From contig JAJPIE010000029.1 in NCBI GenBank assembly GCA_021324935.1, positions 18,697-82,696 of the forward strand: a DNA stretch of 64,000 bases, in the 5' to 3' direction. Source of the DNA: Acidobacteriota bacterium (lineage in GTDB: Bacteria > Acidobacteriota > Terriglobia > Acidiferrales > UBA7541). Made by a program: the position numbers and the translations under genes. The notes under the pieces were generated by a model. That model was given only the letters and a program-made list of their open reading frames with translations, searched no databases and was not told the DNA's origin. Shown piece after piece: positions 2,959-59,404 of the stretch; the stretch's first letter is position 1, and each line of letters opens with the position of its first letter.

Positions 2959-3279
2959 ATGAAAGTTAAATTCGCAGCTGGATTGGCACTGTCACTCTGC
3001 GCCGCAGTTCTCGCGCTTGGAGCCGATGGGAGCTGGACGGGCTACATTTCCGACAGCGCTTGTGGCGCCAAAGGAGCAAACGAAAAGCACGCGGCTTGCG
3101 CAGCAAAGTGCGTGAACGAAAAGGGAGCAAAGTACGTATTCGTCAACGATGCGGACCACAAAGTCTACAACATTGACGATCAGAAGGCCGTTGCCGCCCA
3201 TGCCGGCCACCACGTGGTGGTGAAGGGCACAGTCAGCGGCGACGATCTGAAGCTCACCGGACTGGAAATGGCCAAGTAA
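2959..3279 (+). CDS. Small secreted Cys-containing protein of unknown function
   Basis: Signal peptide MKVKFAAGLALSLCAAVLALGA, then WTGYISDSACG...HAACAAKC...VVVKGT. RBS AGGAGG. Confidence 0.8.
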   Translation: MKVKFAAGLALSLCAAVLALGADGSWTGYISDSACGAKGANEKHAACAAKCVNEKGAKYVFVNDADHKVYNIDDQKAVAAHAGHHVVVKGTVSGDDLKLTGLEMAK

Positions 3280-13310: not shown

Positions 13311-16300
13311 TCAGGCATCGACCGACGGCTTCCCGCGCCCTATCCGTATGCTGTCCAGATAATAGTGAATCGTGGGTGTAAATACCAGCGAAAGGACGAT
13401 CGAGCTGAGCAGCCCGCCGATAACGGCAATGGCCAATGGCTGCAGCATCTGCGAGCCGGAACCGATGGCCAGGGCCAGCGGCAACATGCCCGCTATGGTC
13501 GCCAAAGCGGTCATGGCGATCGGCCGCAAACGGCGGCGGCCCGCTTGAATCATGGCTTCTTCCGGGGTGAAGCCCAGTTGCCGGAAGCGGTGGTCCGCGT
13601 CGAGGAGCAAAATTCCATTCTTTGCCACAATGCCGATCACCATGATCATGCCCATAAAGGAAGCTACGTTGAATGTGATGCCGGTGATGAGCAAGGCAAG
13701 GAAACCGCCAAAGGTCGAGAGAAGTGCCGAACCCAAAATTGCGGTTGGTGCAGTGAACGAGCGGAATTCGAACAACAACACGGCGAAGAGGAGGAGAAGG
13801 GCCAGCAGAAAGACCGTCGCGAGGTCGCGGAAGGATTTCTGTTGTTCCTCGTACAGGCCGCCATATTCAACGCGGATGCTCGAGGGAAGGTGCATGGCGG
13901 CCACTGCTTTCTGGATTGAGGCCATGCCCGTCCCAAGATCCACTCCCTCGAAGCGGGCGGTGACTTGCACGAGCCGCTGCAGGTTTTCACGGCGAATTTC
14001 GGTCTGGCCGGGATCGGAGGTGATGGTGGCGAGGCTTGCGAGGGTCGCGGTCTTGCCCGTGGAGCTCGTCAGGAGCGTGTTGCCCATGCGATCGAGCGAA
14101 GCGCGGTTCTGCTCGGGAAATCGCACGCGGATGGTGTACATGCGGTCGTTCAGAACCACAGGGGACGCCGCGGGCTCTCCTTCCAGCACGGCCGAGGCGT
14201 CCAAAGCCACTTCCTCCGACGAAAACCCCGAGCGCGCAGCCACAACAGGATTCACCTGATAGGTGACCGCGGGTCCGCTGATGGTATTTTCAATTCCGTC
14301 CAGCACATCGACCACGTGCGGCAGTTTTTGGATCGTTTCGGCAACACGCGGCGCCGTTTGGTTGAGCAACTTGCCGTCCTGGCAAAATAGCTTGATGACC
14401 ACGGGCTCGGGGGCGCTGGTCAAGTCGCCGATCATGTCCTGCAACACCTGGACGAATTCCACGTCGACGGAGGGCTCGGTCTTTTTGATTTCGGCGCGAA
14501 TGTCGGAAATGATGTCGTCAATGCCGCGCTTGCGATCCCTTTTCAACTTGACGGTGAAATCGCCGGTATTCGCTTCGGTCACGGCCACAAGACCAAGTTG
14601 CATCCCGGTGCGGCGTGAAGTGTTTTCCACTTCGGGCATCGAACGGATGATCTCCTCGACATGCAGCAGCATGCGGTTGGATTCCGCCAGCGAGCTGCCG
14701 GGGGGAGTGTAGTAATCGAGAATGAAGCCGCCTTCATCCATCTCCGGCAGCAGATCCGAACCCAAGGCGTTGTAGCAAAAGTAGGAGAGGACGACGATAG
14801 CCAGCGAGGAGACGACGAGCACGACGGGGCGGTGCACAATGGCCTGCATCGCGCGGCCATAGAAATTCACCACCTTGCCGAATAATCCGGAGAGATGCTC
14901 CTCTTCCGCCGCAAGCAAAGCCGCAACGTCGTGTTCGCCGCCTTGTTTCCCGCTTCCGCCGGCTGTTTCCTTCCGGCGGACGAGGTATTGGCTCAGAGTC
15001 GGCGTCCAGGTGAGGGCCAAAAGCAGCGAGCTGAGAAGTGAAACCGTCATGGTAATGGCCAACGCGCGGAAAAAGCTGCCGGTCACCCCGGTTACAGAAA
15101 TCAATGGCAGGAACACGACGATCGGCGTGATGGTGGAACCGATCAGCGGTACGGTGATTTCTTTCAGGGCGCTCTGAATCGCCTGGAAACGTGATTCGCC
15201 CGCGTCGCGGTGCAGCACGATGTTTTCGAGTACGACGATGGCATCGTCAATCACCAAGCCGACCGCGGCGGCTAAGCCGCCTAAGGTCATCAGGTTGAAA
15301 CTTTGCCCCACAAGCCACAGGGCAATCAGGGTCAGAGACAAGGTCACTGGGATCACAAGACCCGCAACCAGGGAGGAACCCCAATCGCGCAAGAAGAGCA
15401 CCAGAATCGCGGCAGACAAAATAATTCCCAGCAGCACCGCGTCGCGCACGCTGGAGATGGACTCTTGCACGATGGTGGACTGATCGTAGAAGGGCTCAAG
15501 ATGCACGCCGGGCGGGAGCGTGGGCTGGAGTTCGGCAATGCGTTCATGCACCAATTGCGCGACGTCCAGGGCGTTGCTTTGCGGCTGGCGGATGACGCTC
15601 AAAAGGACAGCAGGCTTCCCGTTGGCAGTCACGATGGTGTACACGGGAGCTTCCGAGGGCCCGACTTTCGCGATGTCGCCAACGCGAATGGGCACGCCAT
15701 TCGCCGAACTCTTCACGACGATCTGCCCTATCTCCTCCGGCGTTCGTACCTGGCCGCTGACCAGGCCCAGGACAAGCTGATGCTCATGCTCGAGCAAACC
15801 GGGCGAGTCAATCAAGTTGGTGCGCCGGATGGCTTCGAGAATATCGGGCACGGTAATACCAGCGGCCTGCAGCCGGGCAGGATCCGGTGTGACCTGAAAC
15901 TCCGGCACGCGCCCACCCTGCACAATCACCGTTGCCACGCCGTTCAAACGGTTGATACGCGGCTTCAAATCGTAGGTGGCAATTTCCCAAAGCTTGGTTT
16001 GGGAAACGCTATCGGAAGTCAGGCTGTAGCCAAGAATCGGAAAGGTAGCGAAAGTCAGACGATGCGTCTCGAGCTTTGCCGTCGGCGGGAGTTCGGGCTG
16101 AAGGCGCGCCACGACGGCGTCAACGCGCTGGAGCGTCAGAATCATGTCCGAGCCCCAGTCAAAGAACAAATCCACTTCCGCGGAGCCGCGGCTAGTGATC
16201 GAGGTCACTTTGGTGAGCCCCGGCACGCTGTTGACGGCCTCTTCGATCGGCTTGGTCACGGTGACCAGCATCTGGTCGATCGGCGCGACGCCATTGTCCA

Positions 16301-16499
16301 CCCCAACCACAATGCGGGGGAAATCGGTGTTAGGGAAAACGGCCACGGGAATTTTGGCCGCCAGATAGATTCCCACGAGGGCAAAGCTCACCAACAGAAA
16401 TAAAATCGGGCTGGAGAGCTTGCTGAACCAGGGCTGTTCCTCCTTGCCCTGTGCCGCCCGGTTTTTCTTTTCCTGAGACTCTTCGGAACCCAATGCCAT
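13311..16499 (-). CDS. RND efflux permease (AcrB/CzcA superfamily)
   Basis: 1062 aa with two sets of TM helices and proton-relay motifs GLVIDDAIVVLEN, KNGILL and RRRLRPIAMT. Confidence 0.95.
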   Translation of the reverse strand: MALGSEESQEKKNRAAQGKEEQPWFSKLSSPILFLLVSFALVGIYLAAKIPVAVFPNTDFPRIVVGVDNGVAPIDQMLVTVTKPIEEAVNSVPGLTKVTSITSRGSAEVDLFFDWGSDMILTLQRVDAVVARLQPELPPTAKLETHRLTFATFPILGYSLTSDSVSQTKLWEIATYDLKPRINRLNGVATVIVQGGRVPEFQVTPDPARLQAAGITVPDILEAIRRTNLIDSPGLLEHEHQLVLGLVSGQVRTPEEIGQIVVKSSANGVPIRVGDIAKVGPSEAPVYTIVTANGKPAVLLSVIRQPQSNALDVAQLVHERIAELQPTLPPGVHLEPFYDQSTIVQESISSVRDAVLLGIILSAAILVLFLRDWGSSLVAGLVIPVTLSLTLIALWLVGQSFNLMTLGGLAAAVGLVIDDAIVVLENIVLHRDAGESRFQAIQSALKEITVPLIGSTITPIVVFLPLISVTGVTGSFFRALAITMTVSLLSSLLLALTWTPTLSQYLVRRKETAGGSGKQGGEHDVAALLAAEEEHLSGLFGKVVNFYGRAMQAIVHRPVVLVVSSLAIVVLSYFCYNALGSDLLPEMDEGGFILDYYTPPGSSLAESNRMLLHVEEIIRSMPEVENTSRRTGMQLGLVAVTEANTGDFTVKLKRDRKRGIDDIISDIRAEIKKTEPSVDVEFVQVLQDMIGDLTSAPEPVVIKLFCQDGKLLNQTAPRVAETIQKLPHVVDVLDGIENTISGPAVTYQVNPVVAARSGFSSEEVALDASAVLEGEPAASPVVLNDRMYTIRVRFPEQNRASLDRMGNTLLTSSTGKTATLASLATITSDPGQTEIRRENLQRLVQVTARFEGVDLGTGMASIQKAVAAMHLPSSIRVEYGGLYEEQQKSFRDLATVFLLALLLLFAVLLFEFRSFTAPTAILGSALLSTFGGFLALLITGITFNVASFMGMIMVIGIVAKNGILLLDADHRFRQLGFTPEEAMIQAGRRRLRPIAMTALATIAGMLPLALAIGSGSQMLQPLAIAVIGGLLSSIVLSLVFTPTIHYYLDSIRIGRGKPSVDA

Positions 16500-16505
16500 G
16501 CGCCG

Positions 16506-17870
16506 CTACTCCTTGTCCTTCGCCGGCTTGTCGTCGGGAGCAGCCTTATCGTCCGCGGCGCCGCCCTTGTCATCCGCTCCGCCCGCGTCTTGCCCCTTTT
16601 CAGCGGGAGGCGCGGCCTCGATCTGAATCTGCGTCCCATCCGGAAGCGCGTAGCCGCCGAGGGTGATTACGGAATCGTTTTCCTTCACGCCCGATTCGAT
16701 CTGCGCAAGCTCCTTGTTCTTGATGCCGACTTTCACCTTGGTGAGGTGAGCCTTCTTGTCCGATCCGGCCAGCATCACGTAATCGCCGGCATCTTCGGAG
16801 TTGTACACAGCGGAAGCAGGCACTACCAGCGCGTTGTCTTCGCTCTTGGCAATCACATTGACGCGGGCGTTCATGCCCGGCTTCAGCGCGGCGTTGGGCT
16901 TGTTGGAAACCACCCAAACTTCGACCGTTGTGCTTCCGGGATCAAGCGCCGGACTGACCAAGGTCACTTTCGCCTTAATCGGCTCTTCGAGGCCGGGGAG
17001 TTCGATCTCCGCCTCGTTTCCGACCTTCAGCAACACGGCTTCGGACTGCGCGACATGGGCTTTTGCAATCAGCTTCGAGGTATTCATCACCGTGAGCAGC
17101 GGCACATTTGCCGTCGCCAGCTCGCCCTCATACTGCGGGCGGTCCGTGACCACGCCGTCAATCGGACTGCGAATTTCCGAGTAGCTCAACTGCGCCTTGG
17201 CGTTCAAGTATTTGCCCTTCGCGGCGGAGAGCTGGCCGCTCGCCGATTTCAGCGTTTCCTGTTTGCCGATTTTCTGCAGATCTGCAAGCTGTTTTTGGGC
17301 TTGTTCGTTGGTGCTGCGCGCCTGCGCCAGAGCCACCACGGCCGCGTCGTAATCCCGGCGCGGCAGCGCGCCTTCGTCAAAAAGCTGTTTGCGCGCGTCG
17401 TAGATTTTTTGCTGTGCGTCAAAAGCCGCCTGCGCGGCCGCGGCATCCAGCTCGGCCTTCTGAATCTCTTCCGGCAGGCTTGCGCCCGTGGTCGTGGCGT
17501 AATTGGCTTCGGCTTGCTCGAATTCGCCCTTGCTCTGTTCCGCCTGGCCGGAGAGGTCCGCATTCTCCAGCAGCGCAAGCAACTGGCCTTGCTTCACCTT
17601 GCTCCCGCGCTGCACGTAAAACTTTGCGATCGTCGAAGTGATCTTGGGCGTGATGACGGCCTGTTCCAGCGGGTAGACGACGGCATCGGAACTTACTTCC
17701 AGTTCGATCGGCCCGCGTTTTGCCGGAGTCACCTGCACGGTCACCAGCGGTGTGGGCTCTTTTTCCGCGCCGCCGCAGCCATAGAGCAGCGCCGCGCCCG
17801 CCAGCAGCCACGCGCCTCGCGACATCCCGCGAAATCCCCGTGCTACAAAATCACGATTGCCATTCTTCAT
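16506..17870 (-). CDS. RND membrane fusion protein (periplasmic adaptor)
   Basis: Lipobox-like LLYGC, hairpin coiled coil, IRSPIDGVV, LKPGM. D/K-rich low-complexity tail. Confidence 0.93.
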   Translation of the reverse strand: MKNGNRDFVARGFRGMSRGAWLLAGAALLYGCGGAEKEPTPLVTVQVTPAKRGPIELEVSSDAVVYPLEQAVITPKITSTIAKFYVQRGSKVKQGQLLALLENADLSGQAEQSKGEFEQAEANYATTTGASLPEEIQKAELDAAAAQAAFDAQQKIYDARKQLFDEGALPRRDYDAAVVALAQARSTNEQAQKQLADLQKIGKQETLKSASGQLSAAKGKYLNAKAQLSYSEIRSPIDGVVTDRPQYEGELATANVPLLTVMNTSKLIAKAHVAQSEAVLLKVGNEAEIELPGLEEPIKAKVTLVSPALDPGSTTVEVWVVSNKPNAALKPGMNARVNVIAKSEDNALVVPASAVYNSEDAGDYVMLAGSDKKAHLTKVKVGIKNKELAQIESGVKENDSVITLGGYALPDGTQIQIEAAPPAEKGQDAGGADDKGGAADDKAAPDDKPAKDKE

Positions 17871-19273
17871 GGTGTTGTCAGCACCCCTGTCAATGTCTGC
17901 AGATTCGCCAGCGCCACCCGGTAACGCACGGCGCCGTCCTGGTAAGCCGCGTTGGCTTGCGCAAAGGTCGTCTGCGCGTCCACCACTTCCAAAACCGTCG
18001 CTTCCCCGCCCTGATAGCGCATGGTCGTCAGGCGTAAACTGTCAGCGGCAAGTTCCGAGGAACGCTGAAGCCCCGCAAGCTCGTTCAGGGAAGTCTCCGC
18101 TTCGGCGTAGAGCGAGCGCATTTCCGCGAGCAGTTTTCGTTGCGCGAAGGAAAGTTCGCGTTTGGACTGATCGCGCTTGAGCTGGGCTACGCGCACCTGG
18201 CTTTGCGTGGCGCCCCAGTTCCAAAGGGGAAGGCTGAGCGTGGCAAGATAGGATGCGCCGAGGTTGCTGAATTTGCTTCCATTGGGATTTGTCCCGTTCA
18301 TCGCATAGCGCTCGGCATCAATACCATAGAAATAATCGAAAGTGACGGAAGGCAGGTAACCCGCCCAAGCCCCGATGAGTTCGTGGCCCGCAGCTTGTGT
18401 ATCGGCCAGGGCGGCGCGGATATCCGGGTTGTTCTGCGCGGCCTGCGCTTCGAATTCCGGCTGCGGCGGCAACGCGACATTCGCGTGCAAATCGTCCGCG
18501 AGTTCGTAATTGTCGGTGAAGTCCGGGAAAAGCAGCACCGCAAGATCCAGCCTGGCATTCAGGAGTTGCAATTTCGCTTCCTGCAACTGGCGCCGCCGGT
18601 CCTGCGCCTGCAACTCGGCCTTGATGACGTCGGAGTGCGCCACTTCCCCGCCCTTTTCGAGCGACTGCGTGAGTTGAAAGAATTTTTCGCCTTCATCGGC
18701 GGTGCGCTCCGCCGCTTGCAGCTTCTTCTCCGCGGCGGCAGCCGCGAAGTAGTCCTGGACGACGGTCGCCACCAAGCCGCGCGCCGCGACTTCTGCGCGC
18801 GCCTTGGCCGCGGCCGCGGACGCCGCTGCACTACGGTACGATTCCCAGGCAGCGACACTGAGGGCCTCGTGCACATCTCCCTGGGCGACATATTCGTGAG
18901 GCGAATTGTTTGCGATAAACGCAATTCCCAGTTGACTGCCTGTAATTTGGGTGTAAAGAGCGGACGTGTTGAAATCGACGCTGGGCAACAGCGCGTCACG
19001 CGCCTGCGCTCGCGCCTCGCGAGCCACACCGGCATCGGTTGCCACCGCCTGGTAGGTTGGCTCATTCTTCTTCGCAAGCGCCAACGCTTCTAGCAGAGTC
19101 AACCTCACCGGCGCGCCCGGCGCGGGTTTACCGGCGGCCAATTGGACCTGCTTGGCCATCACCGCGGGTTTCGGCTGCGGTGCTTCAGGCTGCTGGGCCG
19201 CGGATTCCCCCGAAAAAGAGAGTCCCGCGGCGCAAAGCAGCAGAATCAATTCGACATGATGTTTCCGATGCAA
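17867..19273 (-). CDS. TolC-family outer membrane efflux protein
   Basis: LTLLEALALA..NEP, two OEP repeats, RYQGGEATVLEVVDAQ. Confidence 0.92.
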   Translation of the reverse strand: MHRKHHVELILLLCAAGLSFSGESAAQQPEAPQPKPAVMAKQVQLAAGKPAPGAPVRLTLLEALALAKKNEPTYQAVATDAGVAREARAQARDALLPSVDFNTSALYTQITGSQLGIAFIANNSPHEYVAQGDVHEALSVAAWESYRSAAASAAAAKARAEVAARGLVATVVQDYFAAAAAEKKLQAAERTADEGEKFFQLTQSLEKGGEVAHSDVIKAELQAQDRRRQLQEAKLQLLNARLDLAVLLFPDFTDNYELADDLHANVALPPQPEFEAQAAQNNPDIRAALADTQAAGHELIGAWAGYLPSVTFDYFYGIDAERYAMNGTNPNGSKFSNLGASYLATLSLPLWNWGATQSQVRVAQLKRDQSKRELSFAQRKLLAEMRSLYAEAETSLNELAGLQRSSELAADSLRLTTMRYQGGEATVLEVVDAQTTFAQANAAYQDGAVRYRVALANLQTLTGVLTTP

Positions 19274-19316
19274 AATGCTTCCCTCGAAAATTTATTTCGG
19301 AATGCCGGTTTCGGAC

Positions 19317-19688
19317 TTAGAGATTCGACTTGCCGGACTCCTGCTGCATTTCTTTCGATTCGCTCGCCGCGCTTTCCTTCGTCACACTGACGATCGAACC
19401 GTTGATGGCGTTCACCTGCACTTCGGTGATGTCTTTCCGGCCGGCAGGCCGAATGTCGAACGAGTAGACCAGCTTGCCGTGCTCTTTTTCAAGCTCTTCC
19501 TCGTCGATGACGCCTGGCGCCTTTTTCAGGGCGGCCGCCCGCGCCTCCTCCACGGAAATTTTGGCGTCCTTCCTGAGCGCGGGGGGAATTTTCGATTTTT
19601 TCGGAGTTTGCGTCTGCGCGCCAGAGGCCACGCAAATTCCCGCTGCAAAAGCCATGCAGAAAATCGCTCGTGTCCATGCAATTCGCAT
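19317..19688 (-). CDS. PepSY domain protein
   Basis: Signal peptide, then ISVEEARAAALKKAPG...ELEKEHGKLVYSFDI...EVQVNAINGSIV. ATG 19688. The ORF track extends upstream to 19850. Confidence 0.85.
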   Translation of the reverse strand: MRIAWTRAIFCMAFAAGICVASGAQTQTPKKSKIPPALRKDAKISVEEARAAALKKAPGVIDEEELEKEHGKLVYSFDIRPAGRKDITEVQVNAINGSIVSVTKESAASESKEMQQESGKSNL

Positions 19689-19785
19689 TTTGCTTCTTCC
19701 CGCCGGCGCCGCTCCATCCCAATTCAGGAAGCGGTTCGGCTCCTGTTTATAAGCCGAGATTAGAAAGGGTGAGATAAACGTACGA

Positions 19786-21258
19786 TTAATGGCCGGAAGG
19801 GCTCCCGGCAGGTGCCGGAAGGTAGGCCGTGAATGTGGATCCCGAAGCATCCGAGCGGGTCAGTTCCAGCCGGCCGTGATGCGCCTCGGCAATCCAGCGG
19901 GCGATGGACAAACCAAGTCCTGCGCCGCCGGTATCGCCTTCGCTTCGCGAGCGCGCTTTGTCCGCCCGGAAAAACCGCTCGAAAATTCTCGACTGTAGTT
20001 CCGCGGGAATCCCGGCTCCAGTGTCGATAACGCGCAGGACGTAATCGTTAGCCTCACGGCAGCATTCCACGAGGACTTTCCCGCCCGCGGGGGTGTACTT
20101 GATCGCGTTGTCAAGAAGATTGAGCAGCATCCGCCGCAACAAATCTTCGTCGGCTTGTACTGGAAGCTCCGGCTGGATAGTGGATGACAGCGAAATCCCC
20201 TTGGAGATTGCCAAAGAGCGCGTGCGCCGGAGGACGTCCGCCGTTAGTTCATCCAGATAAAGTTCCCGGATCTGCAAGGGGTACTGGCCGGCATCGGCCC
20301 GTGTGAGGGTGAAAAGATCTTCGATGATATGGGCCAGGCGCTGTGATTCGTCGCGGAGGATGCTCAATGTTTCGCGATATTCCTCGGCGGATCGCGCCGG
20401 CCGGGAGAGCGTCACTTCCGTTTCGCCTTGCAAAATCGCGACCGGGGTTCGCAGTTCGTGGGAAGCATCGGCCACGAAACGCCGCTGTTGTTCGAAGGAC
20501 TTTTCCAGCCGATCCAGCAATTCATTGAAGGAGAGGGCCAGGGTGCCCAATTCGTCGCGCGGATTGGAAACTTTCAAGCGATCGCTAAAGCGCGCTGCGC
20601 CCATTCCCCTCGCCTGCCGCGCCATATCCGCCACGGGCGCCAGGCTCTTTCTGGCCAAAAAATATCCGCCGGCGCTGGCTAGAAGGAGGGCGATCGGAAT
20701 GATCCAGAAGAAAATGTTCCGGATGTCCTCCATCATCTCATGTTGGGGATGAAGCGATTGCAGGACGATGAGTCTGGTGGCGCGATCATCTTGAGATAGC
20801 GGCCGCGCATAGCCGCGGAAACCGTTCCTTCCGCCTGGCACATCCTGATAGACCCCTCCTGCCGTTTTCAGCGGGCTTTGTGCCAGTCTCTGAAACGCTG
20901 CCGAGTCAAACATGTCCGGAGCAAATTTCTCGGCGCCACCCCGCACAGCCGGCAAATCCAAAGAGCTCAACAGGATTTTGCCGCCGCCATCAACGATTAC
21001 GTACACCACATCGCGGAAGCGATGTTCGAGCATTGCTTCGCGCGCGGCGTTTTTGATTCCGTCGGGTCCTTTGTCGTCCTTCAGTTCGGCGTTGAAAGTT
21101 GCAATGAAAGTCTCGCTCTGCTCCGAGAGATTGCTGTCGGTCCGCTCCAAACTGTTCCGCCAATAAAGAAAATAGGTGAGACCGGCGAGCAAAATCAGAA
21201 ACAACCCGAAAAGGGCGCTATACCAGACCGTCATGCGCGAGCGGACCGAGTCAAGCAT
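19786..21258 (-). CDS. HAMP sensor histidine kinase, second copy
   Basis: ADASHELRTPV, NLLDNAIKYT, DTGAGI, GAGLGLSI. ATG 21258 overlaps the end of the regulator gene. Confidence 0.92.
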   Translation of the reverse strand: MLDSVRSRMTVWYSALFGLFLILLAGLTYFLYWRNSLERTDSNLSEQSETFIATFNAELKDDKGPDGIKNAAREAMLEHRFRDVVYVIVDGGGKILLSSLDLPAVRGGAEKFAPDMFDSAAFQRLAQSPLKTAGGVYQDVPGGRNGFRGYARPLSQDDRATRLIVLQSLHPQHEMMEDIRNIFFWIIPIALLLASAGGYFLARKSLAPVADMARQARGMGAARFSDRLKVSNPRDELGTLALSFNELLDRLEKSFEQQRRFVADASHELRTPVAILQGETEVTLSRPARSAEEYRETLSILRDESQRLAHIIEDLFTLTRADAGQYPLQIRELYLDELTADVLRRTRSLAISKGISLSSTIQPELPVQADEDLLRRMLLNLLDNAIKYTPAGGKVLVECCREANDYVLRVIDTGAGIPAELQSRIFERFFRADKARSRSEGDTGGAGLGLSIARWIAEAHHGRLELTRSDASGSTFTAYLPAPAGSPSGH

Positions 21259-21982
21259 GGGATTTTTTGATGCCGGACGGGCTTTGCCCGGAAGCCTTTT
21301 TTGCGGACGACTCGTTTTCACAGAGCACGTAGCCGCTTCCACGTCGCGTTTGCAGCAGGGGCTTCCCGCCTTCGTCGCCCAGTTTGCGGCGCAAGCGATT
21401 CACGTAGACCTCAATAAGGTTGGAAAACGGGTCGAAGGTTTCATCCCAGACATGCTCGGCAATCTCCGAGCGCCCGATTACGCGCCCGGCATTGCGCGCG
21501 AAATATTCGAGCAGGGCATATTCCTTCGCAGTCAGGGGAATGGAGCGGTTACCTCGCTTTGCGGTCTGCGAGGCGGTATCGAGTTCCAGATCGCCTACGA
21601 TGATACGCGGCGGCCGCAAATCGCTTGGGCGGCGCAGCAGCGCGCGCAGCCGCGCCAGCAACTCCCGAAATTCGAAAGGCTTGGTTAGGTAGTCGTCGGC
21701 GCCGGAATCGAGGCCTGTGATGCGATCGTCCACGCCGTCGCGAGCGGTCAGCATGAGGATGGGCGTCCGCTTGCCGGCCGCGCGAATCGCTTGGCACACG
21801 GCGAGTCCATCCATGCCGGGAATCATGATGTCCAAAATGATCAGGTCGTAATCGTTGATCTCCGTCTGGTAAACAGCATCATTCCCGTTCTCCGCGATGT
21901 CCACGGCATACGACTCTTCCCGCAGGCCTTTTGCTACGAATCGTGCGATTCGCGCGTCGTCTTCGACCAGGAGCACTCGCAT
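21251..21982 (-). CDS. OmpR-family response regulator, second copy
   Basis: MRVLLVEDD, LIILDIMIP, GADDYLTKPF, NLIEVYVNRLRRKL, TRRGSGY. Confidence 0.95.
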   Translation of the reverse strand: MRVLLVEDDARIARFVAKGLREESYAVDIAENGNDAVYQTEINDYDLIILDIMIPGMDGLAVCQAIRAAGKRTPILMLTARDGVDDRITGLDSGADDYLTKPFEFRELLARLRALLRRPSDLRPPRIIVGDLELDTASQTAKRGNRSIPLTAKEYALLEYFARNAGRVIGRSEIAEHVWDETFDPFSNLIEVYVNRLRRKLGDEGGKPLLQTRRGSGYVLCENESSAKKASGQSPSGIKKSHA

Positions 21983-22067
21983 GCACGTATCATACGGCAA
22001 TTTCACAGCGGGGGAGCAAATGCCGCCCGGCGTCGCGCTGGGGCGGATGCAAGGAAGGAGTAGTCAC

Positions 22068-23387
22068 TTATTTGTGGCGAAATTCGATAGGGGCACGCAC
22101 ACGGTCCAGAGGAAAAACCTGTATTTGCCACTTCACGGGCACTGAAGTGGGCACAAAGCACATGGTCTTATCGCAAGCCTGGTATTCCAGTTTGCCAGTG
22201 ATGGAGATGATCTTTCCATCTTTTCCCAATCCGCTCCAGAACGACGAACTCGTGTTTACATTCACCTCCTGACTGACCCGAAAGGCTCCTTCGTACACTG
22301 GCACTTTTTCCTTGATTGCCGGCAGGTAGAGAATTTGCGACGCCGGGTACATCGGAGAACTGAGCAGGAAATCCGGCGAAGAATCGATCACGAGTTTGAC
22401 CGGCTTGTAACCCTGAGTCCCCGGGGCGTAGACGTGCACATCTGGAGGCAATTCCACCGCCGCGTAAACCGTGATGCGCGTCCCAGGTACGCCGGTACGA
22501 TCCGATTGCTCGAGGGACAGCTTCAGGTGTGGCGCCTCGATCGTGCCGACCACTTCCTGTCCCAGTTCCGGGAATAACTTGGAGAGAATGCTGTTACCCG
22601 TCAGACGTTCCCGATATCTCGGGTCAAAGAATTTTTCCTTGATGATTCCGTCAGGACCGATGAAAAAATAACCAGGTCGCGCGAACCCCTTTTGCATGCC
22701 CGTAGCTTCGTGATTGAAGACCCCGTAGGCCCGGATCGTGCTGGAATCCGGATCCGCGAGCATGGGATAAGTGATCTTGAAGCGACCCGCGAAGAACTTC
22801 AGGATGTCTTGCGAATCGTAGCTAATTGCCGCGAACTTGAGTCCCTGCTTTTCGAATCTTGGGATTGCACTTTGCAGCTGGACCAGCTGCCCTTTGCAGA
22901 AGGGTCACCAGTCCGCCGAACGGAAAAACAGCAGCACTGTGCCGTTCTTTCCCTTCAGCGATTCGAGCGTTTGTGCATTGCCAAATTCGTCCTTCAGCGA
23001 AAAATCGGGGGCTTTTTGGCCAACCTCAAGGCCGATGGCCATGGGCCCGCAGGACGTGACCTGGATCGTGTCGTCGTCGAGCGTGCCGTGAACTGTGACT
23101 GTGTCGCCCAGCTTCCCGGTGACTTTGTTTTGTGGCGACAGGCTGTACATCACACGGTTGGTGTCGTCGTAAAGCGCAATCTCCGCGCCAGGCACGTTCT
23201 TGAGGCATTCCGGCGACTCGCTGAACGCCTCATCCGCGTTACACGCGCTGGTCACCAGCACTCCGGACCAGAATCCGGGCTTGGATGTAGCGCCTTGATT
23301 CGCGAACGTGCTCGCGGCGAAAAAAACAACGGCAACCGCCGCCAGGCAGAGAATTTTCGAAGTGGACGTAAGCCGCAACGGTGTCAC
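22068..23387 (-). CDS. Exported selenoprotein (439 aa, Sec161): small Cys domain + AhpC/TSA thioredoxin-fold UxxC domain + DsbD-alpha-like domain
   Basis: ORFs 22905-23387 and 22068-22763 are in the same frame with no other stop between them. The read-through sequence is FFRSADW-UGA-PFCKGQLVQLQ...FAAISYDS...ITYPMLADPDS. UGA at 22905-22907 occupies the first Cys position of a CxxC motif and is followed by a SECIS-like hairpin. Sec signal peptide at the N-terminus and YQACDKTMC near the C-terminus. Confidence 0.85.
22866..22898 (-). promoter_or_regulatory. Bacterial SECIS-like element
   Basis: mRNA after UGA: CCCUUC-UGCA-AAGG-GCAGCUG-GUC-CAGCUGC-AAAG-UGCA. Perfect 7-bp upper stem, apical GGUC starting 21 nt after UGA, and a 4-bp lower stem. 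Confidence 0.75.
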
Positions 23388-23471
23388 TGATTCGACCGCC
23401 TCGATTCGCTCAAGTTCGCTCGCACTATACGCCTATGAATCAGGCCGTGCAAGTTGCGCGCCTAAATCGCT

Positions 23472-24401
23472 TCACATCGCGACCCAGCCTCTGAGAATTC
23501 CGTAAAGGGACAACGAGCCTACAATCAACCACAAAACTACACCAAGTGCCATCGGACGCCAGCCGACCTGTCGCAGCGTCTCCCGCGAGATGCCCGCTCC
23601 GATCAGAAAAAGAGTCGCCGTCAAGCCAAGGCGCCCCGCTTGAAAAAGCCAGTGATAACCCGTGGAAAGCATCGGCAGGTAGGTGTTCAAAACCGCCGCG
23701 AGACAAAAGAATAGAATGAACCACGGAAACTGAATCTTCGACTTGCTGTGCTTCAGCGCTGCGGTCACCAGCGCCAAAGGCACGATCCACAACGCGCGCG
23801 CGAGCTTCACCGTGGTGCCGATAATGAGCGACTCCGCGCCGTAGCGCGATGCCGCGCCGACCACGGAACTTGTGTCGTGAATTGCCAGAGCCGCCCACAA
23901 GCCAAACTGCGTCTGCGAAAGTTTCAGAAAGTGCCCGAAAGGAGGAAAAATCAGCAAGGCAACGGAATTGAGAACGAATACAGTCCCCAACGAAATGGCC
24001 ATCTCTTCCGCATCCGCATGCAGGATCGGGCCGACGGCGGCAATCGCACTGCCGCCGCAAATCGCCGTTCCGGTGGTGATCAGATAGCCGGAGTTGCCGC
24101 CCACTTCCAGCAATTTCGCCAAGGTAAGTCCAACCAAGAAAGAGAAGCTGATTCCCAGCGCCGTGTAAATGAACCCGTTGCGGCCGGCCTTCAGCACCTC
24201 GTGCAGATTCATCCCGAAGCCGAGGGCAATCACGGAGAGCTGCAGCAGCAGCCGCGCGCCGGTGCGGCTCTGTTTTGGGAGCGGATTGGTGAGAATTAGT
24301 CCGAACAGAATTCCCAGCGTCAGCGCCACCGGGGGTGAAATATATCCGCTGAAACATGCAACAAAAAGCAGGATGAAAAATACGATGCGCGCTGAATCCA
24401 T
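23472..24401 (-). CDS. YeiH / putative sulfate exporter (PSE, UPF0324) membrane protein
   Basis: Multi-TM protein with GTAICGGSAIAAV, AIHDTSSVVGA and TVKLARALW. Confidence 0.9.
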   Translation of the reverse strand: MDSARIVFFILLFVACFSGYISPPVALTLGILFGLILTNPLPKQSRTGARLLLQLSVIALGFGMNLHEVLKAGRNGFIYTALGISFSFLVGLTLAKLLEVGGNSGYLITTGTAICGGSAIAAVGPILHADAEEMAISLGTVFVLNSVALLIFPPFGHFLKLSQTQFGLWAALAIHDTSSVVGAASRYGAESLIIGTTVKLARALWIVPLALVTAALKHSKSKIQFPWFILFFCLAAVLNTYLPMLSTGYHWLFQAGRLGLTATLFLIGAGISRETLRQVGWRPMALGVVLWLIVGSLSLYGILRGWVAM

Positions 24402-24487
24402 GGACTCCTTTGAACTTTAGTGTGGTCTAGGTTCTTCTGCATCCTGCCGCGGAGTTTCGCGCGGCTTCGATAATATTCGGGCCATGG

Positions 24488-25192
24488 TCAGCCGTTGAAA
24501 TTTAAGAATATCGGCGACAATGGTTTTAACTGAAAGCACAGATGGTCACCCGCTTCCACCCAAATCGGCGGAGTGATCGAACCGGCGATGATGACCTCGC
24601 CCGCCCGCAGTTTCTCTCCGAAGTAGGAGAGCAGGTTGGCGACATGGCCGACAATCTGAATCAATTCTCCCGTTAAAGCCTCCAGATCAAAAGTGTCGGC
24701 AATCACAGCCTCATTTCGCTCCACGTGCGCTTGCAACCCCGTAAGTTTGCCGCCGGCGTAAGCTGTATCACACGCTCCCAGAGTCAGGTGGCGCTGATAG
24801 ATGTCCCGCGCGAGCGTTCCTTCCACATCTTCGGCTGGATGATCCACGTCCGCCACTTCAATCGCCGCGCCAAGTCCGGCAATCGCGGCTCGAAGACTCT
24901 CCCGGTCTGCGTTGGCTGCGATGTCCTTGCCGAGATAGACGGTCACCTCCGGCTCCGCGGCCGGCTTGGTCCAATCTGCCAGGGAAACCGTGGATCTCGA
25001 AGGAACGACGGCATCCGCCATGAGAAATCCCACCAGCGGCGCATTGATTTTCAACCGCTGCATTGCCGCGGGGCCGCCGAAAGCGAGCTTCCACCCGAGA
25101 GGCTTTTTGCCCTGCTCCAGCAACTCGCGACGCCAGCGCAACTGGCTCTTCATGCCGCTGACGATTCGCGGGTCTTCCCACGGAAGTGTCAT
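24488..25192 (-). CDS. 2-keto-4-pentenoate hydratase / fumarylacetoacetate hydrolase family protein
   Basis: GWKLAFG, AEPEVTVYLGKD, AAIEVAD, LRAGEVIIAGSIT. Confidence 0.8.
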   Translation of the reverse strand: MTLPWEDPRIVSGMKSQLRWRRELLEQGKKPLGWKLAFGGPAAMQRLKINAPLVGFLMADAVVPSRSTVSLADWTKPAAEPEVTVYLGKDIAANADRESLRAAIAGLGAAIEVADVDHPAEDVEGTLARDIYQRHLTLGACDTAYAGGKLTGLQAHVERNEAVIADTFDLEALTGELIQIVGHVANLLSYFGEKLRAGEVIIAGSITPPIWVEAGDHLCFQLKPLSPIFLNFNG

Positions 25193-40234: not shown

Positions 40235-40362
40235 AGCCGGGTTCGGGACACAACCACGGGTTATGGCGCAGGCTGTGTTGCCGGTGCGGGACTTAACTCA
40301 GGGGATCGTACGGGCAGCCCGGAGTGGCTGTGCAACAGAATTTGCAGCGCGGAGACCATCGA

Positions 40363-41667
40363 GTGGGCAACGTCGCGTCGAATCGAAAAGCCAGGCCCTG
40401 GTACAGCGTGCTTTATATCCAGGTGCTGATTGCCGTGGTGGTAGGGTGCGTCATCGGCGCCTTGTTTCCGAAAACGGGTATGGCGCTGAAACCGCTCGGG
40501 GATTCCTTCGTAGCGCTCATCCGCATGATGATCGCTCCGGTGATCTTCTGCGTGATCGTGCAAGGGATCGCGTCGATGAGCGACCTGAAAAAGGTGGGCA
40601 CGATCGGCGTAAAAACGCTTGTCTATTTCGAAATCGTCTCCACGCTGGCCCTGATCATTGGTATTTTGGTCGCCGTCGCGTTTCACCCCGGCTACGGCCT
40701 CAATATTGACCCGGCGACCCTGGACCCGAAGGCGGCTTCGGCATTTGCTACACGCGCCAAGGAATCGGGATTCATTCCCTTTCTTGTGGGTTTCCTTCCG
40801 AAAACATATATCGGGGCACTTGCTGAAGGAGAAGTGCCGCAAGTCCTGCTGATTTCGATCCTGACGGGGTTCGCGATCGCCAATATGGGCGAAGTGGGCC
40901 TGCGCGCGCTGAAGGGCATTGAGATCGCGAACAAAGTGGTGTTCGGTATCGTGCGGATCGTGGTCCGCGCCGCGCCTCTCGGCGCCTTGGGCGGGATGGC
41001 GTTCACAGTGGGGAGCTACGGCGTCGCTTCGCTGACGAACCTGTTGAAGCTAATGGGCACGTTTTACCTTTCGAGCTTCTTGTTCGTGGTGGCGGTGCTG
41101 GGGACCATCGCGCATTTTGCAGGGTTTTCGATTTTTCGCTTCCTGGCGTATATCAAAGACGAATTGTTGATTGTGCTGGGAACCAGCTCTTCGGAAACCG
41201 TGCTGCCGGATATGATGCGCAAGCTGGAGGCATTGGGCGCGCCGCGAACCATAGTGGGCCTGGTTTTCCCGACTGGCTATGTCTTCAATACGGACGGCAC
41301 GAATATTTATCTGACACTCTCCGCCATTTTTCTGGCGCAAGCCACCAACACGCATCTCTCGATGGGACAGATCGCCGGCATTCTGCTCTTTGCACTGGTA
41401 GCATCCAAGGGGGGATCCGGCGTAACCGGAACGGGCTTTGTGACGCTGGCGGCCATTCTTGCAGCTGTGCCCTCGATTCCCGTCCAGTCACTGGCGTTGC
41501 TGGTCGGAATCGAAAAGTTCATGAGTGAATGCCGCGCGCTGACCAATGTTGTGGGCAACGGCGTGGCAACACTGGTCGTGAGCCGCTGGCAAGGCGAATT
41601 AGACGTGGTCAACATGCGGCGCGTGATGGAGTCGCGAACGGAAAATGGCACGCCGGATTCGGCGTGA
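40363..41667 (+). CDS. dctA: Dicarboxylate/amino acid:cation symporter (DctA), copy 1
   Basis: LYIQVLIA, GTSSSETVLP, PTGYVFNTDGT, SKGGSGVTG. GTG 40363 fits RBS GGAG; alternative start 40324. Confidence 0.9.
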   Translation: MGNVASNRKARPWYSVLYIQVLIAVVVGCVIGALFPKTGMALKPLGDSFVALIRMMIAPVIFCVIVQGIASMSDLKKVGTIGVKTLVYFEIVSTLALIIGILVAVAFHPGYGLNIDPATLDPKAASAFATRAKESGFIPFLVGFLPKTYIGALAEGEVPQVLLISILTGFAIANMGEVGLRALKGIEIANKVVFGIVRIVVRAAPLGALGGMAFTVGSYGVASLTNLLKLMGTFYLSSFLFVVAVLGTIAHFAGFSIFRFLAYIKDELLIVLGTSSSETVLPDMMRKLEALGAPRTIVGLVFPTGYVFNTDGTNIYLTLSAIFLAQATNTHLSMGQIAGILLFALVASKGGSGVTGTGFVTLAAILAAVPSIPVQSLALLVGIEKFMSECRALTNVVGNGVATLVVSRWQGELDVVNMRRVMESRTENGTPDSA

Positions 41668-53614: not shown

Positions 53615-53681
53615 AGCTTTCGCAAGCTATTCCTGGAGAGGGGATCAGAGCGCCGGCCACTTTGTGCGTCCGGCCCGAACC

Positions 53682-54953
53682 ATGACCAAGCCCAGCGGAA
53701 ACAGCAGGTCTCTGTATGCAAACCCCACAGCCCAGGTTTTGTTTGCCGTCGCCGCGGCGATTGTCCTCGGCTATTTGCATCCCCCCGCAGCCATCGCGAT
53801 GAAGCCGCTAGGCGACGGATTCATCCGCCTGATCACGATGATCATCACGCTGATCATTTTCTGCACCGTGGTGACCGGCATTGCGGGCATGGAAGATATG
53901 AAAAAGGTTGGGCGAGTTGGCGGAAAAGCGCTGATCTATTTCGAAGTGGTCTCCACAGTTGCGCTGCTCATCGGATTTATCATTGGCAATGTCACCAAGC
54001 CCGGCGGAGGCATGAACATCAATCCCGCCACGCTCGACGCCAAGGCCGTAGCGGAATACGCCGGCGCGGCGAAATCGCAAAATGTTCCGGATTTCATCAT
54101 GCACATCATCCCCACCTCGGTGGTGGATGCCTTCGCAAAGGGCGACATTTTGCAAGTGATGCTGATTTCGGTCCTCTTCGGCTTTGCGTTGTCCGCGGTT
54201 GGGCCGCGCTGCAAACCGCTGGTGGATCTGTTCGACGCGCTTACACATGCGGTTTTTGGAGTCGTGCGCATAGTGATGAAGCTTGCGCCGCTCGGAGCGT
54301 TTGGCGCGATGGCCTTCACCGTGGGAAAGTTCGGGCTGGCGTCGCTGGGACCTTTGCTAAAACTGATCGCCATTTTCTATCTGACTTCCCTGCTCTTTGT
54401 TCTGCTCGTTTTAGGAATCATCTGCCGTCTGTGCGGATTCGGGATTTTGCGATTTTTGCGGTACATCAAGGATGAAATTGTGCTGGTGTTGGCGGTAAGT
54501 TCTTCGGAGCCGGCCATGCCGACGCTGATGGAGAAGCTTGAAAAATTGGGCTGTTCCAAGGCGCTGGTCGGGTTAATCGTGCCCACGGGCTACACATTCA
54601 ACACGGACGGCACCGGAATTTACATGACCCTCGCGGCACTGTTTGTGGCGCAGGCGACCGGAACGCAATTGACACTGATGCAACAACTGACCATTCTCGC
54701 GGTTGCCGTGCTGACCTCGAAGGGAGCGAGCGGCGTGCAGGGGGCTTCCTTCATCGCGTTGGTGGGAACGCTGATGGTGATTCCGTCCATCCCAGTCGCC
54801 GGAATGGCGATCATTCTTGGAATCGACCGCTTTATGAGCATGTGCCGTGCCACGGTAAACATGATCGGGAACGGCGTGGCCACCGTGGTGGTGTCGCGAT
54901 GGGAACGCGAATTGGACGGAGCGACGTTACAAAAAAATCTGGCCGCGCAGTGA
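53682..54953 (+). CDS. dctA: Dicarboxylate symporter DctA, copy 2
   Basis: [36 protein letters not shown]. Confidence 0.9.
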
Positions 54954-54980
54954 AACTACCGCAGTTGATGGGGGGAACGC

Positions 54981-56555
54981 ATGCCAGAACAATTTGATTT
55001 TGTGGTGGCGGGCGCGGGGCACAACAGCCTGATTACGGCGGCATACCTGGCGAAGGCGGGGTACCGCTGCCTGGTGTTGGAAGGACGCCCGATCGTGGGC
55101 GGCGGCGTGAAATCCGCTCACCTGACGTTGAAAGGATTCGTCCATGATGTGTGCTCCTCGGCGCACAACGGAATCCACGGCAACCCCCTGCTGCGGAACA
55201 ATGAATTGAATCTCGGCGAATACGGTCTGGAGTACATCTATCCCGATCCAGTGTTTCACATGCCGTTTCCCGACGGCTCTTACCTCACGCAATGGCGCGA
55301 CCTGGACCGTACGTGCGCGGAATTCGCCAAATTTTCAAAAAAAGACGGCGAGGCGTATCGCCGCATGATCGCGGAATATGAATCCGTTAGCCCGCTTCTG
55401 GGGCAGATAAGCTTCTCGCCCGTCGGTTTCGGCAAACCGTTGAATGAACTTCTCGCCGCACATCCACAGGGAAAGATCTGGCAGCGGCGCCTGGCGATGT
55501 CCGCGTGGGAAATCATTTCCGAGACCTTCGAGGACGCTCACTGCCGCGCGTTCATGCTGGGTTGCCCGTATTCGCTGCAACCCGTGCTGGACCCGGCCAC
55601 CGCTCGCGCCGCCTACATTCCACTGCACCAGCAACGCGAGAGCCGCCCCTTGCCAAAGGGCGGATCGGGGGAGTTGACTGCGGCTTTGGCCCGCGTGATC
55701 GAGGCCCACCAGGGGACGATTCTGGTCAACAAATGGGTGAACGCACTGATCATCGAGAATGGACGCTGCGTGGGAGTGGAATGCTCGGATGGCAGCAAGT
55801 ACCGCGCGGATAAAGCGGTGGTTTCCACCATCCACATCAAGCAACTTGTCGACATGGCGCCGGCTGAGCTTTGGGGCGAGGACTTTCTGGATGGCGTGAA
55901 AACCTGGGAGGCCGGGCTGACGCTGTTCGCCGCGAACTACGCCACTACGGAACCTCCCAAATACAAAGTGGACGGCGGCGAACTTTCGCCGGTCCATTCC
56001 GGACTGATGGTCAGCCCGGAACGCGCGATGCAGATGACGGTAGACTACCGCAGCGGCAATGCAAATACCGAAGATCCTTCCCTTCACGTAATCTGCTGCA
56101 GCGTTGCCGACCCGACCCGCGCACCAGCCGGGATGCACACCATCAAAATCGTGGCGTACCATCCCTATCAACTAAAGGAAGGCCCTGCGCATTGGGACGT
56201 AATCAAGGAACAAGTGGCCCAGGCCAATCTGAAATTCCTGCGGCGCTTCTCTCCCAACCTGACCGACGACAAAATTCTGGCGCATACGGTGGAGACCCCA
56301 CTCGATCTGGAGCGAATGAATCCGCACAATTGGCACGGGAGTTGCCACGCCGGCGGATCTGGTCCTTCGCAGGTGGGAGCGATGCGCCCGATGCCGGGCT
56401 ACGCGCAGCACCGTATGCCGATTCCAGGACTCTATCAAACGGGGGCGACGACGCATCCAGGCGGCTCGGTGACCGGTGGGCCGGGGCGCAATGCCGCCGT
56501 TGTGATACTCAAGGATCTCGGCACCAGCATCGAAGCGGTGGTTCACAAAGCTTGA
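54981..56555 (+). CDS. FAD-dependent oxidoreductase, phytoene desaturase-like (COG1233), paralog 1
   Basis: VVAGAGHNSL...LE.RP.VGG, PKGGSG.L, PIPGLYQTGATTHPGGSVTG.PGRNAA. Confidence 0.88.
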   Translation: MPEQFDFVVAGAGHNSLITAAYLAKAGYRCLVLEGRPIVGGGVKSAHLTLKGFVHDVCSSAHNGIHGNPLLRNNELNLGEYGLEYIYPDPVFHMPFPDGSYLTQWRDLDRTCAEFAKFSKKDGEAYRRMIAEYESVSPLLGQISFSPVGFGKPLNELLAAHPQGKIWQRRLAMSAWEIISETFEDAHCRAFMLGCPYSLQPVLDPATARAAYIPLHQQRESRPLPKGGSGELTAALARVIEAHQGTILVNKWVNALIIENGRCVGVECSDGSKYRADKAVVSTIHIKQLVDMAPAELWGEDFLDGVKTWEAGLTLFAANYATTEPPKYKVDGGELSPVHSGLMVSPERAMQMTVDYRSGNANTEDPSLHVICCSVADPTRAPAGMHTIKIVAYHPYQLKEGPAHWDVIKEQVAQANLKFLRRFSPNLTDDKILAHTVETPLDLERMNPHNWHGSCHAGGSGPSQVGAMRPMPGYAQHRMPIPGLYQTGATTHPGGSVTGGPGRNAAVVILKDLGTSIEAVVHKA

Positions 56556-56637
56556 AAAGCCCGAAACTTGCAGGCGGTTTTGAGCGCCTCTTGCCGGCCC
56601 CCCACAATCGTTTTTCGGATGCGCGGAAACGGAGAAG

Positions 56638-56656
56638 GCGGCAGCCGGGCTGCCGC
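56638..56656. terminator. Hairpin between convergent genes
   Basis: GCGGCAGC-CGG-GCTGCCGC. Confidence 0.45.
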
Positions 56657-56667
56657 ACTGCAAACAA

Positions 56668-57543
56668 TTATTCCACCCAGGTTTGCTGGCCGAACGCGAT
56701 CTGCCAGTGCCCTTCGTGTTTTTCAAACAAGCGCGTGACGTGCAGGATTTTCCCGTGCCGCGGCTTGTGCTCGGAGCGCATCACCGCCGCGTCTCCAAAC
56801 ACCCAGATCTTCATGGACAATACTTCCGCAGGGATCAGTGTCGTGTTGGTCCGGCGAAGTTCCTTGATCATGGCCACGCGGTCGGCTTTGTTGAGAGGAG
56901 TGCCACCGTCGGGCGTTACGAAAAGAAAATCGTCGGTAAAATTCGGAATCCACGCTTCGACGTCGTTCGTTAAAACTGTCCGCTCCACCGCCTGCCACAT
57001 CGTTGCCACTTCCTGTTCATCGGGCGTATCTGCCTTGAACGGCATCGTCTTGCAGGGATTTTCGCAATGCACCGGCTCGCCGTTGCTGGGAGCGCCAAAA
57101 CCCGCGCGCTTTTCCGGATTCTTTTCCGCCTTGTTTGTCTCCTGATAAATGAGCAGTTGCCAGGCTGCGGGACGCTTGACCCATACCCGGACGAAGCGCA
57201 CGTTCACATCCTGCGAAGGAAGAAAATGGGAACCGCGCACCAACACCACCGTGCCGGCATCCATCAATTGCACATCCGAGTCGTGCCCCGTTGAGAGAGA
57301 AGAGAGCTCGGAGAGATATTCCACCTTGGTCATCGTCATGCCCTTGCGGTCCGTGCCAGCGAAATCGGGATCCAGGAGTTTTGCGAGCGCCGCGCGATCC
57401 GCATCGTGGAACGCGGCAGTGAAGGCGCGATCAATCTTCATGACTTCGTCCCGGGAACTTGCAGCGAGTACGGGGAGCGAGAGGGCGCACAGCGTGAAAA
57501 GCAGGCACACCAGAGTTAGGAGAGATCGAACAGGATAGCGCAT
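56668..57543 (-). CDS. Secreted tandem DUF4440 protein, paralog 3
   Basis: Signal peptide MRYPVRSLLTLVCLLFTLCALSLPVLA, LDPDFAGTD, linker CENPCK, FTDDFLFV, HVTRLFEKHEGHWQ. Confidence 0.82.
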   Translation of the reverse strand: MRYPVRSLLTLVCLLFTLCALSLPVLAASSRDEVMKIDRAFTAAFHDADRAALAKLLDPDFAGTDRKGMTMTKVEYLSELSSLSTGHDSDVQLMDAGTVVLVRGSHFLPSQDVNVRFVRVWVKRPAAWQLLIYQETNKAEKNPEKRAGFGAPSNGEPVHCENPCKTMPFKADTPDEQEVATMWQAVERTVLTNDVEAWIPNFTDDFLFVTPDGGTPLNKADRVAMIKELRRTNTTLIPAEVLSMKIWVFGDAAVMRSEHKPRHGKILHVTRLFEKHEGHWQIAFGQQTWVE

Positions 57544-57568
57544 GAGGGCCTCCCGGAGGCTGCTGGCA

Positions 57569-59380: not shown

Positions 59381-59404
59381 GGCGTTGAACCAACGGGGGA
59401 CGGG

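Follow-up and report, generated by a model that had tools for sequence, protein, structure and literature searches.

Decoding of UGA as selenocysteine (Sec) through SelB and a selenocysteine insertion sequence (SECIS) in the message is a well-established mechanism in Escherichia coli and Moorella. E. coli SelB contacts the G and the U in the apical loop of the fdhF element, and the fdhF-type SECIS has a GGUC tetraloop closed by an A-U pair, a bulged U in the upper stem, and the G and U at positions 23 and 24 counted from the U of the UGA. The broader bSECIS consensus model (Zhang & Gladyshev 2005, as given in PMC13188914, Fig. 2) describes an apical loop of 3-9 nt closed by an upper stem of 4-16 bp. 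One or both of the first two loop nucleotides are G, most often within the pattern N1-G-(G/U)-N-N2, where N1 and N2 pair; the apical loop lies 16-37 nt from the UGA, and the minimum free energy (MFE) is -7.5 kcal/mol or lower. One recognised family of selenoproteins consists of the Prx-like UxxC/UxxU proteins of PF00578 (Kryukov & Gladyshev 2004; see the lists in PMC9312934 and PMC13188914). The element considered here lies in a 64,000-nt stretch of DNA (the window) from an Acidobacteriota bacterium (assembly GCA_021324935.1, contig JAJPIE010000029.1, positions 18,697 to 82,696). It is a hairpin with arms GCAGCUG and CAGCUGC around a GUC apex, shortly downstream of an in-frame UGA in the coding region of an apparently exported Prx-like UxxC oxidoreductase, and comparison of this sequence with its relatives indicates that it is very probably a functional bacterial SECIS.

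The gene occupies 22068 to 23387 on the minus strand and has 439 codons when read through the UGA from a putative GTG start at 23387. The UGA is codon 161 (22907 to 22905), in frame, within the motif F-F-R-S-A-D-W-U-P-F-C (U161-P-F-C164). With the stop replaced by Cys for the Pfam search, the AhpC-TSA domain PF00578 matches at aa 122-251 (E = 2.8e-30), spanning the UGA, and Redoxin PF08534 likewise matches across it. More than 1,800 homologues came up in a protein search, and the best 120 of them are nearly full-length; about 100 of these 120 carry W-C-P-Y-C at the motif, and the 15 closest carry ‘W-W-P-[FY]-C’. Scans of metagenome and GTDB genome contigs yielded 160 loci, nearly all from Acidobacteriota (Acidoferrum, Sulfotelmatobacter, Terriglobia, Bryobacterales), and with the window included 159 of the 161 sequences have TGA at codon 161, the other two having TCA and TGC. 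The TGA-carrying relatives are at 58-83% protein identity. In the Cys homologues the position of the UGA is occupied by the first Cys of CxxC, with the codon TGC or TGT. The codon-wise conservation pattern runs on in frame beyond the UGA, and the homologues are full-length. The locus thus has a conserved UGA at a redox Cys position with in-frame coding beyond. The TGA and the hairpin are identical in contigs from four runs belonging to three independent soil or mine metagenome studies, at depths of 15-105x, and are therefore not an assembly error.

The ‘WWPFC’ proteins, with Trp at the Sec position, are JGI records (P0001-P0012, P0015, P0028 and P0082). The P0005 protein is the table-4 translation of its gene (L175, 301-1620), in which table 11 gives a single internal stop, the TGA at codon 161; the JGI Trp records of the closest relatives are mis-translated selenoproteins. 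A few sequences have other residues at this position. Locus L150 has TCA (Ser, one step from TGA) with a fully intact hairpin, and the proteins P0013 (WSPFC, 17 members) and P0014 (WEPYC) have Ser and Glu, respectively. Either the redox centre of these Ser and Glu forms has recently been inactivated by mutation, or the sequences are in error.

The hairpin region runs on the minus strand from 22907 to 22866. The UGA is followed by CCCUUC (22904 to 22899), UGCA (22898 to 22895), proposed as the 5' side of a lower stem, and AAGG (22894 to 22891); these make up a 14-nt spacer (CCCUUCUGCAAAGG, 22891 to 22904) that separates the UGA from the base of the stem and aligns without gaps. The 5' arm GCAGCUG (22890 to 22884) consists of the third base of Gly+5 and the codons Gln+6 and Leu+7, numbered from the UGA codon. 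The apical GUC (22883 to 22881) is the Val+8 codon, and the 3' arm CAGCUGC (22880 to 22874) contains Gln+9, Leu+10 and the first base of Gln+11. AAAG (22873 to 22870) and UGCA (22869 to 22866) follow as the 3' side of the proposed internal loop and lower stem. Read with the flanking G22884 and C22880, the apex is GGUCC, the first G of GGUC being the 21st nucleotide after the UGA. These letters and this distance are as the first-pass annotation gave them, and its fold is reproduced by RNAfold, which shows a 7-bp upper stem, a 4x4 internal loop and a 4-bp lower stem (MFE -17.1 kcal/mol for 61 nt). The stem is, however, also two copies of the self-complementary hexamer CAGCTG, encoding Gln-Leu twice in the peptide Q-L-V-Q-L, which made a coding by-product a serious rival explanation from the start. 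The significance of the hairpin comes only from its comparison with relatives.

That comparison reveals RNA-level selection on the stem and on the G-G-U apex only where the codon is UGA. Among 145 unique TGA-form sequences, the normalised synonymous entropy of codons +5 to +10 is 0.10, against 0.71 at 68 other codons (Mann-Whitney p = 4.6e-5); since the two sets of codons are compared within the same sequences, shared ancestry does not explain the difference. Leu+7 is CTG in 145/145 and Gln+9 is CAG in 136/136, with Gln+6 CAG in 142/145 and Leu+10 CTG in 138/145. Gly+5 is GGG in 139/141, a minor codon elsewhere in the gene, and Val+8 is GTC in 129, GTT in 13 and GTG in 3. Elsewhere in these sequences, codons for Leu, Gly, Val and Gln are near saturation. 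Pairing was counted in 126 unique 60-nt sequences, in which 98.6% of the cells of the 7-bp stem are paired. Compensatory double changes occur at two stem pairs, from G-C to A-U in L141, L142 and L152 and from G-C to C-G in L125, and one G-U variant (L147, L148 and L151) pairs in the sense strand only. The stem is recovered unaided by RNAalifold, as 6 bp with a 5-nt GGUCC loop.

At the apex, G-G-U is invariant (columns 30-32 in the 126 sequences); C predominates at the fourth position, where U and G also occur but A does not. The apex may be drawn as a GUC triloop closed by a G-C pair or as a GGUCC pentaloop, and the modelling makes the pentaloop the more likely form. Variants with Gln replaced by Glu (9/126) lose the closing G-C pair, so that the loop becomes GGUCG, and they keep the TGA; this accords with the 6-bp stem and 5-nt loop found by RNAalifold. 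The length of the spacer is also invariant, with no insertions or deletions among 159 TGA forms.

The selection does not extend to the whole of the structure first proposed. The lower stem is 73% paired, with its inner A-U pair (columns 19-45) unpaired in 94 of the 126 sequences and its outer U-A pair (16-48) in 41, and its only constant pairs are the two that are fixed by the Cys and Ala codons. The third positions of Ser+12 and Ala+13 vary freely. The 4-bp lower stem was rejected as a conserved feature on these counts, and AAAG and UGCA (22866 to 22873) are, on the alignment, probably not part of the functional element. The first-pass inference of a functional SECIS is hence borne out by the relatives for the upper stem and the apex, but not for the lower stem and the 4x4 internal loop. 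Upstream and long-range helices that appeared in wider RNAalifold windows were also set aside: they involve invariant coding positions only and have no double changes, and a long-range alternative helix is broken by the caActg variants, which are nevertheless compensated in the local hairpin.

The Cys forms provide a control for the coding function of the region, since they encode the same peptide, G-Q-L-[IV]-Q-L-Q. In their genes Leu+7 is CTC, CTA or TTG, CAA is mixed with CAG, and the Gly codon is GGC, GGA, GGT or GGG. Whereas the core hairpin averages -11.0 kcal/mol over 158 TGA forms, its energy in the Cys/Ile(Met) forms lies between -0.5 and -3.7 kcal/mol. Every TGA form has a Val codon (GUN) at the apex, and 99/103 Cys forms have Ile there (AUN; ATC or ATT). 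The comparison of UGA-bearing with Cys-bearing homologues that the first-pass annotation had called for thus comes out in its favour: the TGA forms keep the hairpin with compensatory changes, and the Cys forms lose it. Equal conservation of the hairpin in Cys-codon homologues, which that annotation had named as the outcome that would count against a SECIS, was not seen.

The placement of these forms in a neighbour-joining (NJ) tree is informative in the same respect. Two TGA forms, L155 and L157, are sister to the Cys/Ile clade, so that hairpin-bearing TGA forms lie on both of its sides. Together with the loss of the hairpin in the Cys forms, this placement argues that the hairpin follows the UGA rather than phylogeny or the peptide. 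A second Cys clade, L170-L172, which retains Val (WC[PA]FCKGQLVEL), is sister to the main Sec clade. The hairpin after its Cys codon is partial (-7.9 kcal/mol) or decayed (-1.2 kcal/mol), and has the look of a SECIS fossil remaining after a conversion from Sec to Cys, the direction of change being taken solely from the unbootstrapped NJ tree. Such fossils have been described in Cys homologues derived from selenoproteins (Zhang et al. 2006, PMC1794560, Fig. 4), and the L170-L172 remnants resemble them.

In its properties the hairpin agrees with the bSECIS consensus. The stem and loop are 7 bp and 3 nt in the RNAfold structure or 6 bp and 5 nt in that of RNAalifold; the loop reads G-G-U-C-C, with the outer G and C pairing; the distance from the UGA is 20 nt to the pentaloop or 21 nt to the triloop; and the energy of the core is -11.2 kcal/mol. 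The hairpin begins 14 nt after codon 161, at which homologues have Cys, and the structure is under selection in the Sec forms and relaxed in the Cys forms. There is no essential difference from the model, although the palindrome that forms the stem in the window is unusually perfect and a conserved lower helix is lacking.

The relationship to fdhF is looser. The first-pass annotation had placed the fdhF GGUC about 19 nt after the UGA, and at sequence level this is right: in the fdhF sequence (TGACACGGCCCATCGGTTGCAGGTCTGCACC..., with a 100% match in 5,413 E. coli records), GGUC is at the 19th nucleotide. The GGUC here, at the 21st, is thus at a nearly equal distance, and the G and U contacted by SelB in fdhF correspond to the invariant G and U of this family. 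The first-pass description of a GGUC apex holds for the tetranucleotide, which is that of fdhF, but not for the loop: there is no A-U-closed tetraloop, and the first G either pairs with the following C, leaving a GUC triloop, or belongs to a GGUCC pentaloop. The bulged U is absent, the register is shifted by 2 nt, so that the G and U are at positions 25 and 26, and the 25-nt core is more stable (-11.2 kcal/mol, against -5.7 for fdhF). The host proteins are unrelated, a thioredoxin-fold oxidoreductase here and a molybdoenzyme in the case of fdhF. The element probably works as that of fdhF does, but a copy of the fdhF-type SECIS was rejected as its description, in view of its perfect stem without a bulge, its different loop and the positions 25 and 26.

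A tRNA for Sec was found beside a relative of the gene. At locus L023, a tRNA with anticodon UCA (3143-3241) lies 600 nt downstream of a 76%-identical TGA-form homologue, and is called as tRNA-Sec both by ARAGORN and by the Rfam model RF01852 (64.5 bits; the gathering score is 47). Because allo-tRNAs that resemble tRNA-Sec and can suppress stop codons also occur in Acidobacteria (PMC5389517), the architecture of the L023 tRNA was checked. Its acceptor stem has seven Watson-Crick pairs and an eighth, A·A, its T-stem is 5 bp, its D-stem is 6 bp with a CGGU loop, and it has G73. The 5-bp T-stem and G73 rule out an 8/4 or 9/3 allo-tRNA or a U73 tRNA-Cys, and on its sequence the gene fits a bacterial 8/5 tRNA-Sec. 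A blastn search of the L023 tRNA against E. coli gave no match, the method being too insensitive. Sec users are known among the Acidobacteria (PMC1794560; Occallatibacter riparius, PMC12013277).

A mechanism can be proposed by analogy, and in this sense the decoding of the UGA would be SelB-dependent. In the manner established for E. coli and Moorella, SelB loaded with GTP and Sec-tRNA(Sec) would use its C-terminal domain to bind the apical stem-loop, by way of the exposed G and U, while the ribosome nears the UGA. The fixed spacing of about 20 nt would set the tRNA at the A site, allowing Sec to be inserted in competition with RF2 and giving a product with a U-P-F-C active site.

One rival explanation is that the hairpin is a by-product of coding, in which Q-L-V-Q-L written in the preferred codons CAG and CTG gives self-pairing CAGCTG hexamers that have no function in the RNA. 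CAGCTG is indeed self-complementary, QLxQL is conserved in Sec and Cys forms alike, and the single-sequence energy of the hairpin is ordinary. However, the Cys forms write this peptide with CTC, CTA, TTG and CAA and lose the hairpin, whereas in the TGA forms the synonymous sites of the six codons are near-frozen next to neighbouring codons that are near-saturated; the preference for GGG at Gly+5, a minor codon elsewhere in the gene, and the occurrence of compensatory double changes are also at odds with a coding origin, which is scarcely credible. A function unrelated to UGA decoding, either as a DNA-level inverted repeat such as the site of a dimeric regulator or as an RNA element for pausing, stability or attenuation, is also very improbable. 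The perfect 7+7 palindrome with its 3-nt spacer is of the type bound by dimeric DNA-binding proteins, and a two-component regulator gene adjoins; but the hairpin strictly accompanies TGA at a fixed 14 nt, Cys forms on either side of the tree have lost it, and the G-U variant of L147, L148 and L151 keeps its pairing only in the sense-strand RNA. The apical GGU is fixed even though the protein accepts Ile at this position, and there is no U-run after the hairpin, which is thus not a terminator.

A different kind of alternative accepts read-through of the UGA but not its decoding as Sec. The codon could be read as Trp, or as Cys or Ser by a tRNA-Sec-like suppressor (an allo-tRNA or a SelC*-type tRNA-Cys), or the hairpin could stimulate near-cognate read-through. 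JGI translates relatives with Trp at the UGA codon, acidobacterial allo-tRNAs suppress stop codons (PMC5389517), and Ser (TCA) variants exist (L150, P0013). Against this, the Trp reading is a mere table-4 fallback of the gene caller, the L023 tRNA with its 5-bp T-stem and G73 is neither an allo-tRNA nor a U73 tRNA-Cys, the UGA replaces the nucleophilic Cys of CxxC in a classical Sec/Cys pair, and the hairpin fits the SelB-type SECIS model. Decoding of this kind is unlikely. A SECIS that directs Sec insertion is the reading preferred here.

Several observations nevertheless weigh against the SECIS reading. Taken as a single sequence, the hairpin folds within the range of chance: the 61-nt MFE has a z score of -0.87, with 43/200 dinucleotide shuffles folding at least as well, and the 25-nt core has a z score of -1.98. 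Perfect 7-bp hairpins with 3-5 nt loops number 18 in the window, compared with 14.3 +/- 2.8 in shuffles. These thermodynamics and counts are not significant and alone give no support to a SECIS. The covariation events are few, comprising four sequences at two pairs, because the stem is nearly invariant. The sample of Cys-form DNA is small, at 11 distinct genes with L154 included, and the NJ tree is without bootstrap support. Rfam gave no match in the window at the gathering score, and near the site only chance-level matches (E of at least 1.9) at a permissive threshold, with no SECIS family among them. The genes selA, selB, selC and selD were not found in the 64-kb window, in which about 20 of some 50 open reading frames (ORFs) were scanned with Pfam, which leaves a Sec trait of this particular genome putative; the window has no tRNA gene. 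Lastly, the spacer codons +2 to +4 (TTC-TGC-AAA, 22895-22903, minus strand) also have moderately reduced synonymous entropy (0.34 vs 0.71, p = 0.0026). Ile+27 (22824-22826, minus strand) is likewise low in synonymous variation, being ATC in 135/138, and alignment folding supported no pairing partner either for the spacer codons or for Ile+27.

The protein that would result is of the Prx-like thiol:disulfide oxidoreductase kind, judged by its PF00578 domain and UxxC motif. It resembles the known Prx-like selenoproteins in having Sec in place of the first Cys of a CxxC-type centre, and in having Cys homologues. Its closest solved structures are M. tuberculosis AhpE and the ResA-type thiol-disulfide oxidoreductases, and in the structure alignment U takes the first position of TxxC/CxxC, with C164 at the peroxidatic or second Cys. 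In contrast to the known family members, it has three domains, is apparently exported, and has a DsbD_N-like C-terminal domain with a second invariant Cys pair. The N-terminus is signal-peptide-like (residues 1-30) and is followed by an N-domain of about 90 aa (30-120), for which a faint similarity to DUF5818 was seen in relatives. The DsbD_N-like domain (PF11412) is at aa 300-414, and contains the motif Y-Q-A-C-D-K-T-M-C-F-V-P, in which C405 and C410 are invariant in 62 aligned family members. This second pair suggests an intramolecular thiol/selenol-disulfide relay in the cell envelope. In an NCBIfam search with the protein no curated model reached its cut-off, a limited search of the literature found no description of this architecture as a selenoprotein, and the text of the BSepDB paper mentions neither this lineage nor this family. 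Other TGA-interrupted ORFs in the window, 133 candidates in all, are essentially noise, and none but that at 22907 has a redox-motif context.

The genes around the selenoprotein gene are on the same minus strand. An FAA-hydrolase-family gene (24488 to 25192) lies upstream, and downstream are an OmpR-type response regulator (21251 to 22006), a HAMP histidine kinase (19786 to 21342), an outer-membrane efflux protein (17867 to 19273), an HlyD-type adaptor (16506 to 17870) and a 1062-aa ORF, presumed to be an RND pump (13311 to 16499). This neighbourhood (13311-25192) is conserved: in 36-53 related loci the TGA-form gene is likewise accompanied by the regulator, kinase and hydrolase. Further away, the plus-strand region 53664-61075 begins with a sodium:dicarboxylate symporter-family gene (53664 to 54953; a second lies at 40324 to 41667) and contains three paralogous flavin amine-oxidase genes (54981 to 56555, 57542 to 59380 and 59405 to 61075). 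The exact selenoprotein gene sequence (100% of sampled 31-mers) is present in 2017 soil and 2024 mine metagenomes from three studies, and the organism is therefore widespread.

Taken together, these features allow a tentative wider reading, possible though some way short of probable, in which the family is an undescribed and widespread selenoprotein architecture of soil Terriglobia, with Sec ancestral and dominant, repeated Sec-to-Cys conversions, and databases that hide it. The protein may be an exported relay in which a DUF5818-like N-domain is followed by a Prx-fold U-x-x-C domain and this by an nDsbD-like C-x4-C domain, and its gene may be in synteny with those of an OmpR-type two-component system and an RND efflux pump. 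Each Sec-to-Cys conversion may have been followed by decay of the SECIS and by a change from Val to Ile at the loop codon, and public databases may mask the family through Trp mis-translations and split ORFs. The SECIS mechanism is a standard one, and the protein is a member of a selenoprotein family already recognised; what appears to be undescribed so far is the exported architecture of three domains, along with its dominance in soil Terriglobia.

For annotation, the locus is one selenoprotein gene rather than two ORFs or a pseudogene, and its public relatives are mis-translated, with Trp, or truncated. With one peptide encoded both in the presence and in the absence of the hairpin, the family is an unusually clean natural experiment for the evolution of bacterial SECIS elements, in which the GU determinant of the loop dictates Val rather than Ile in the protein. 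Finally, abundant soil Acidobacteriota would, on this evidence, use selenocysteine in a redox protein of the cell envelope, which may bear on the ecology of selenium in soil.

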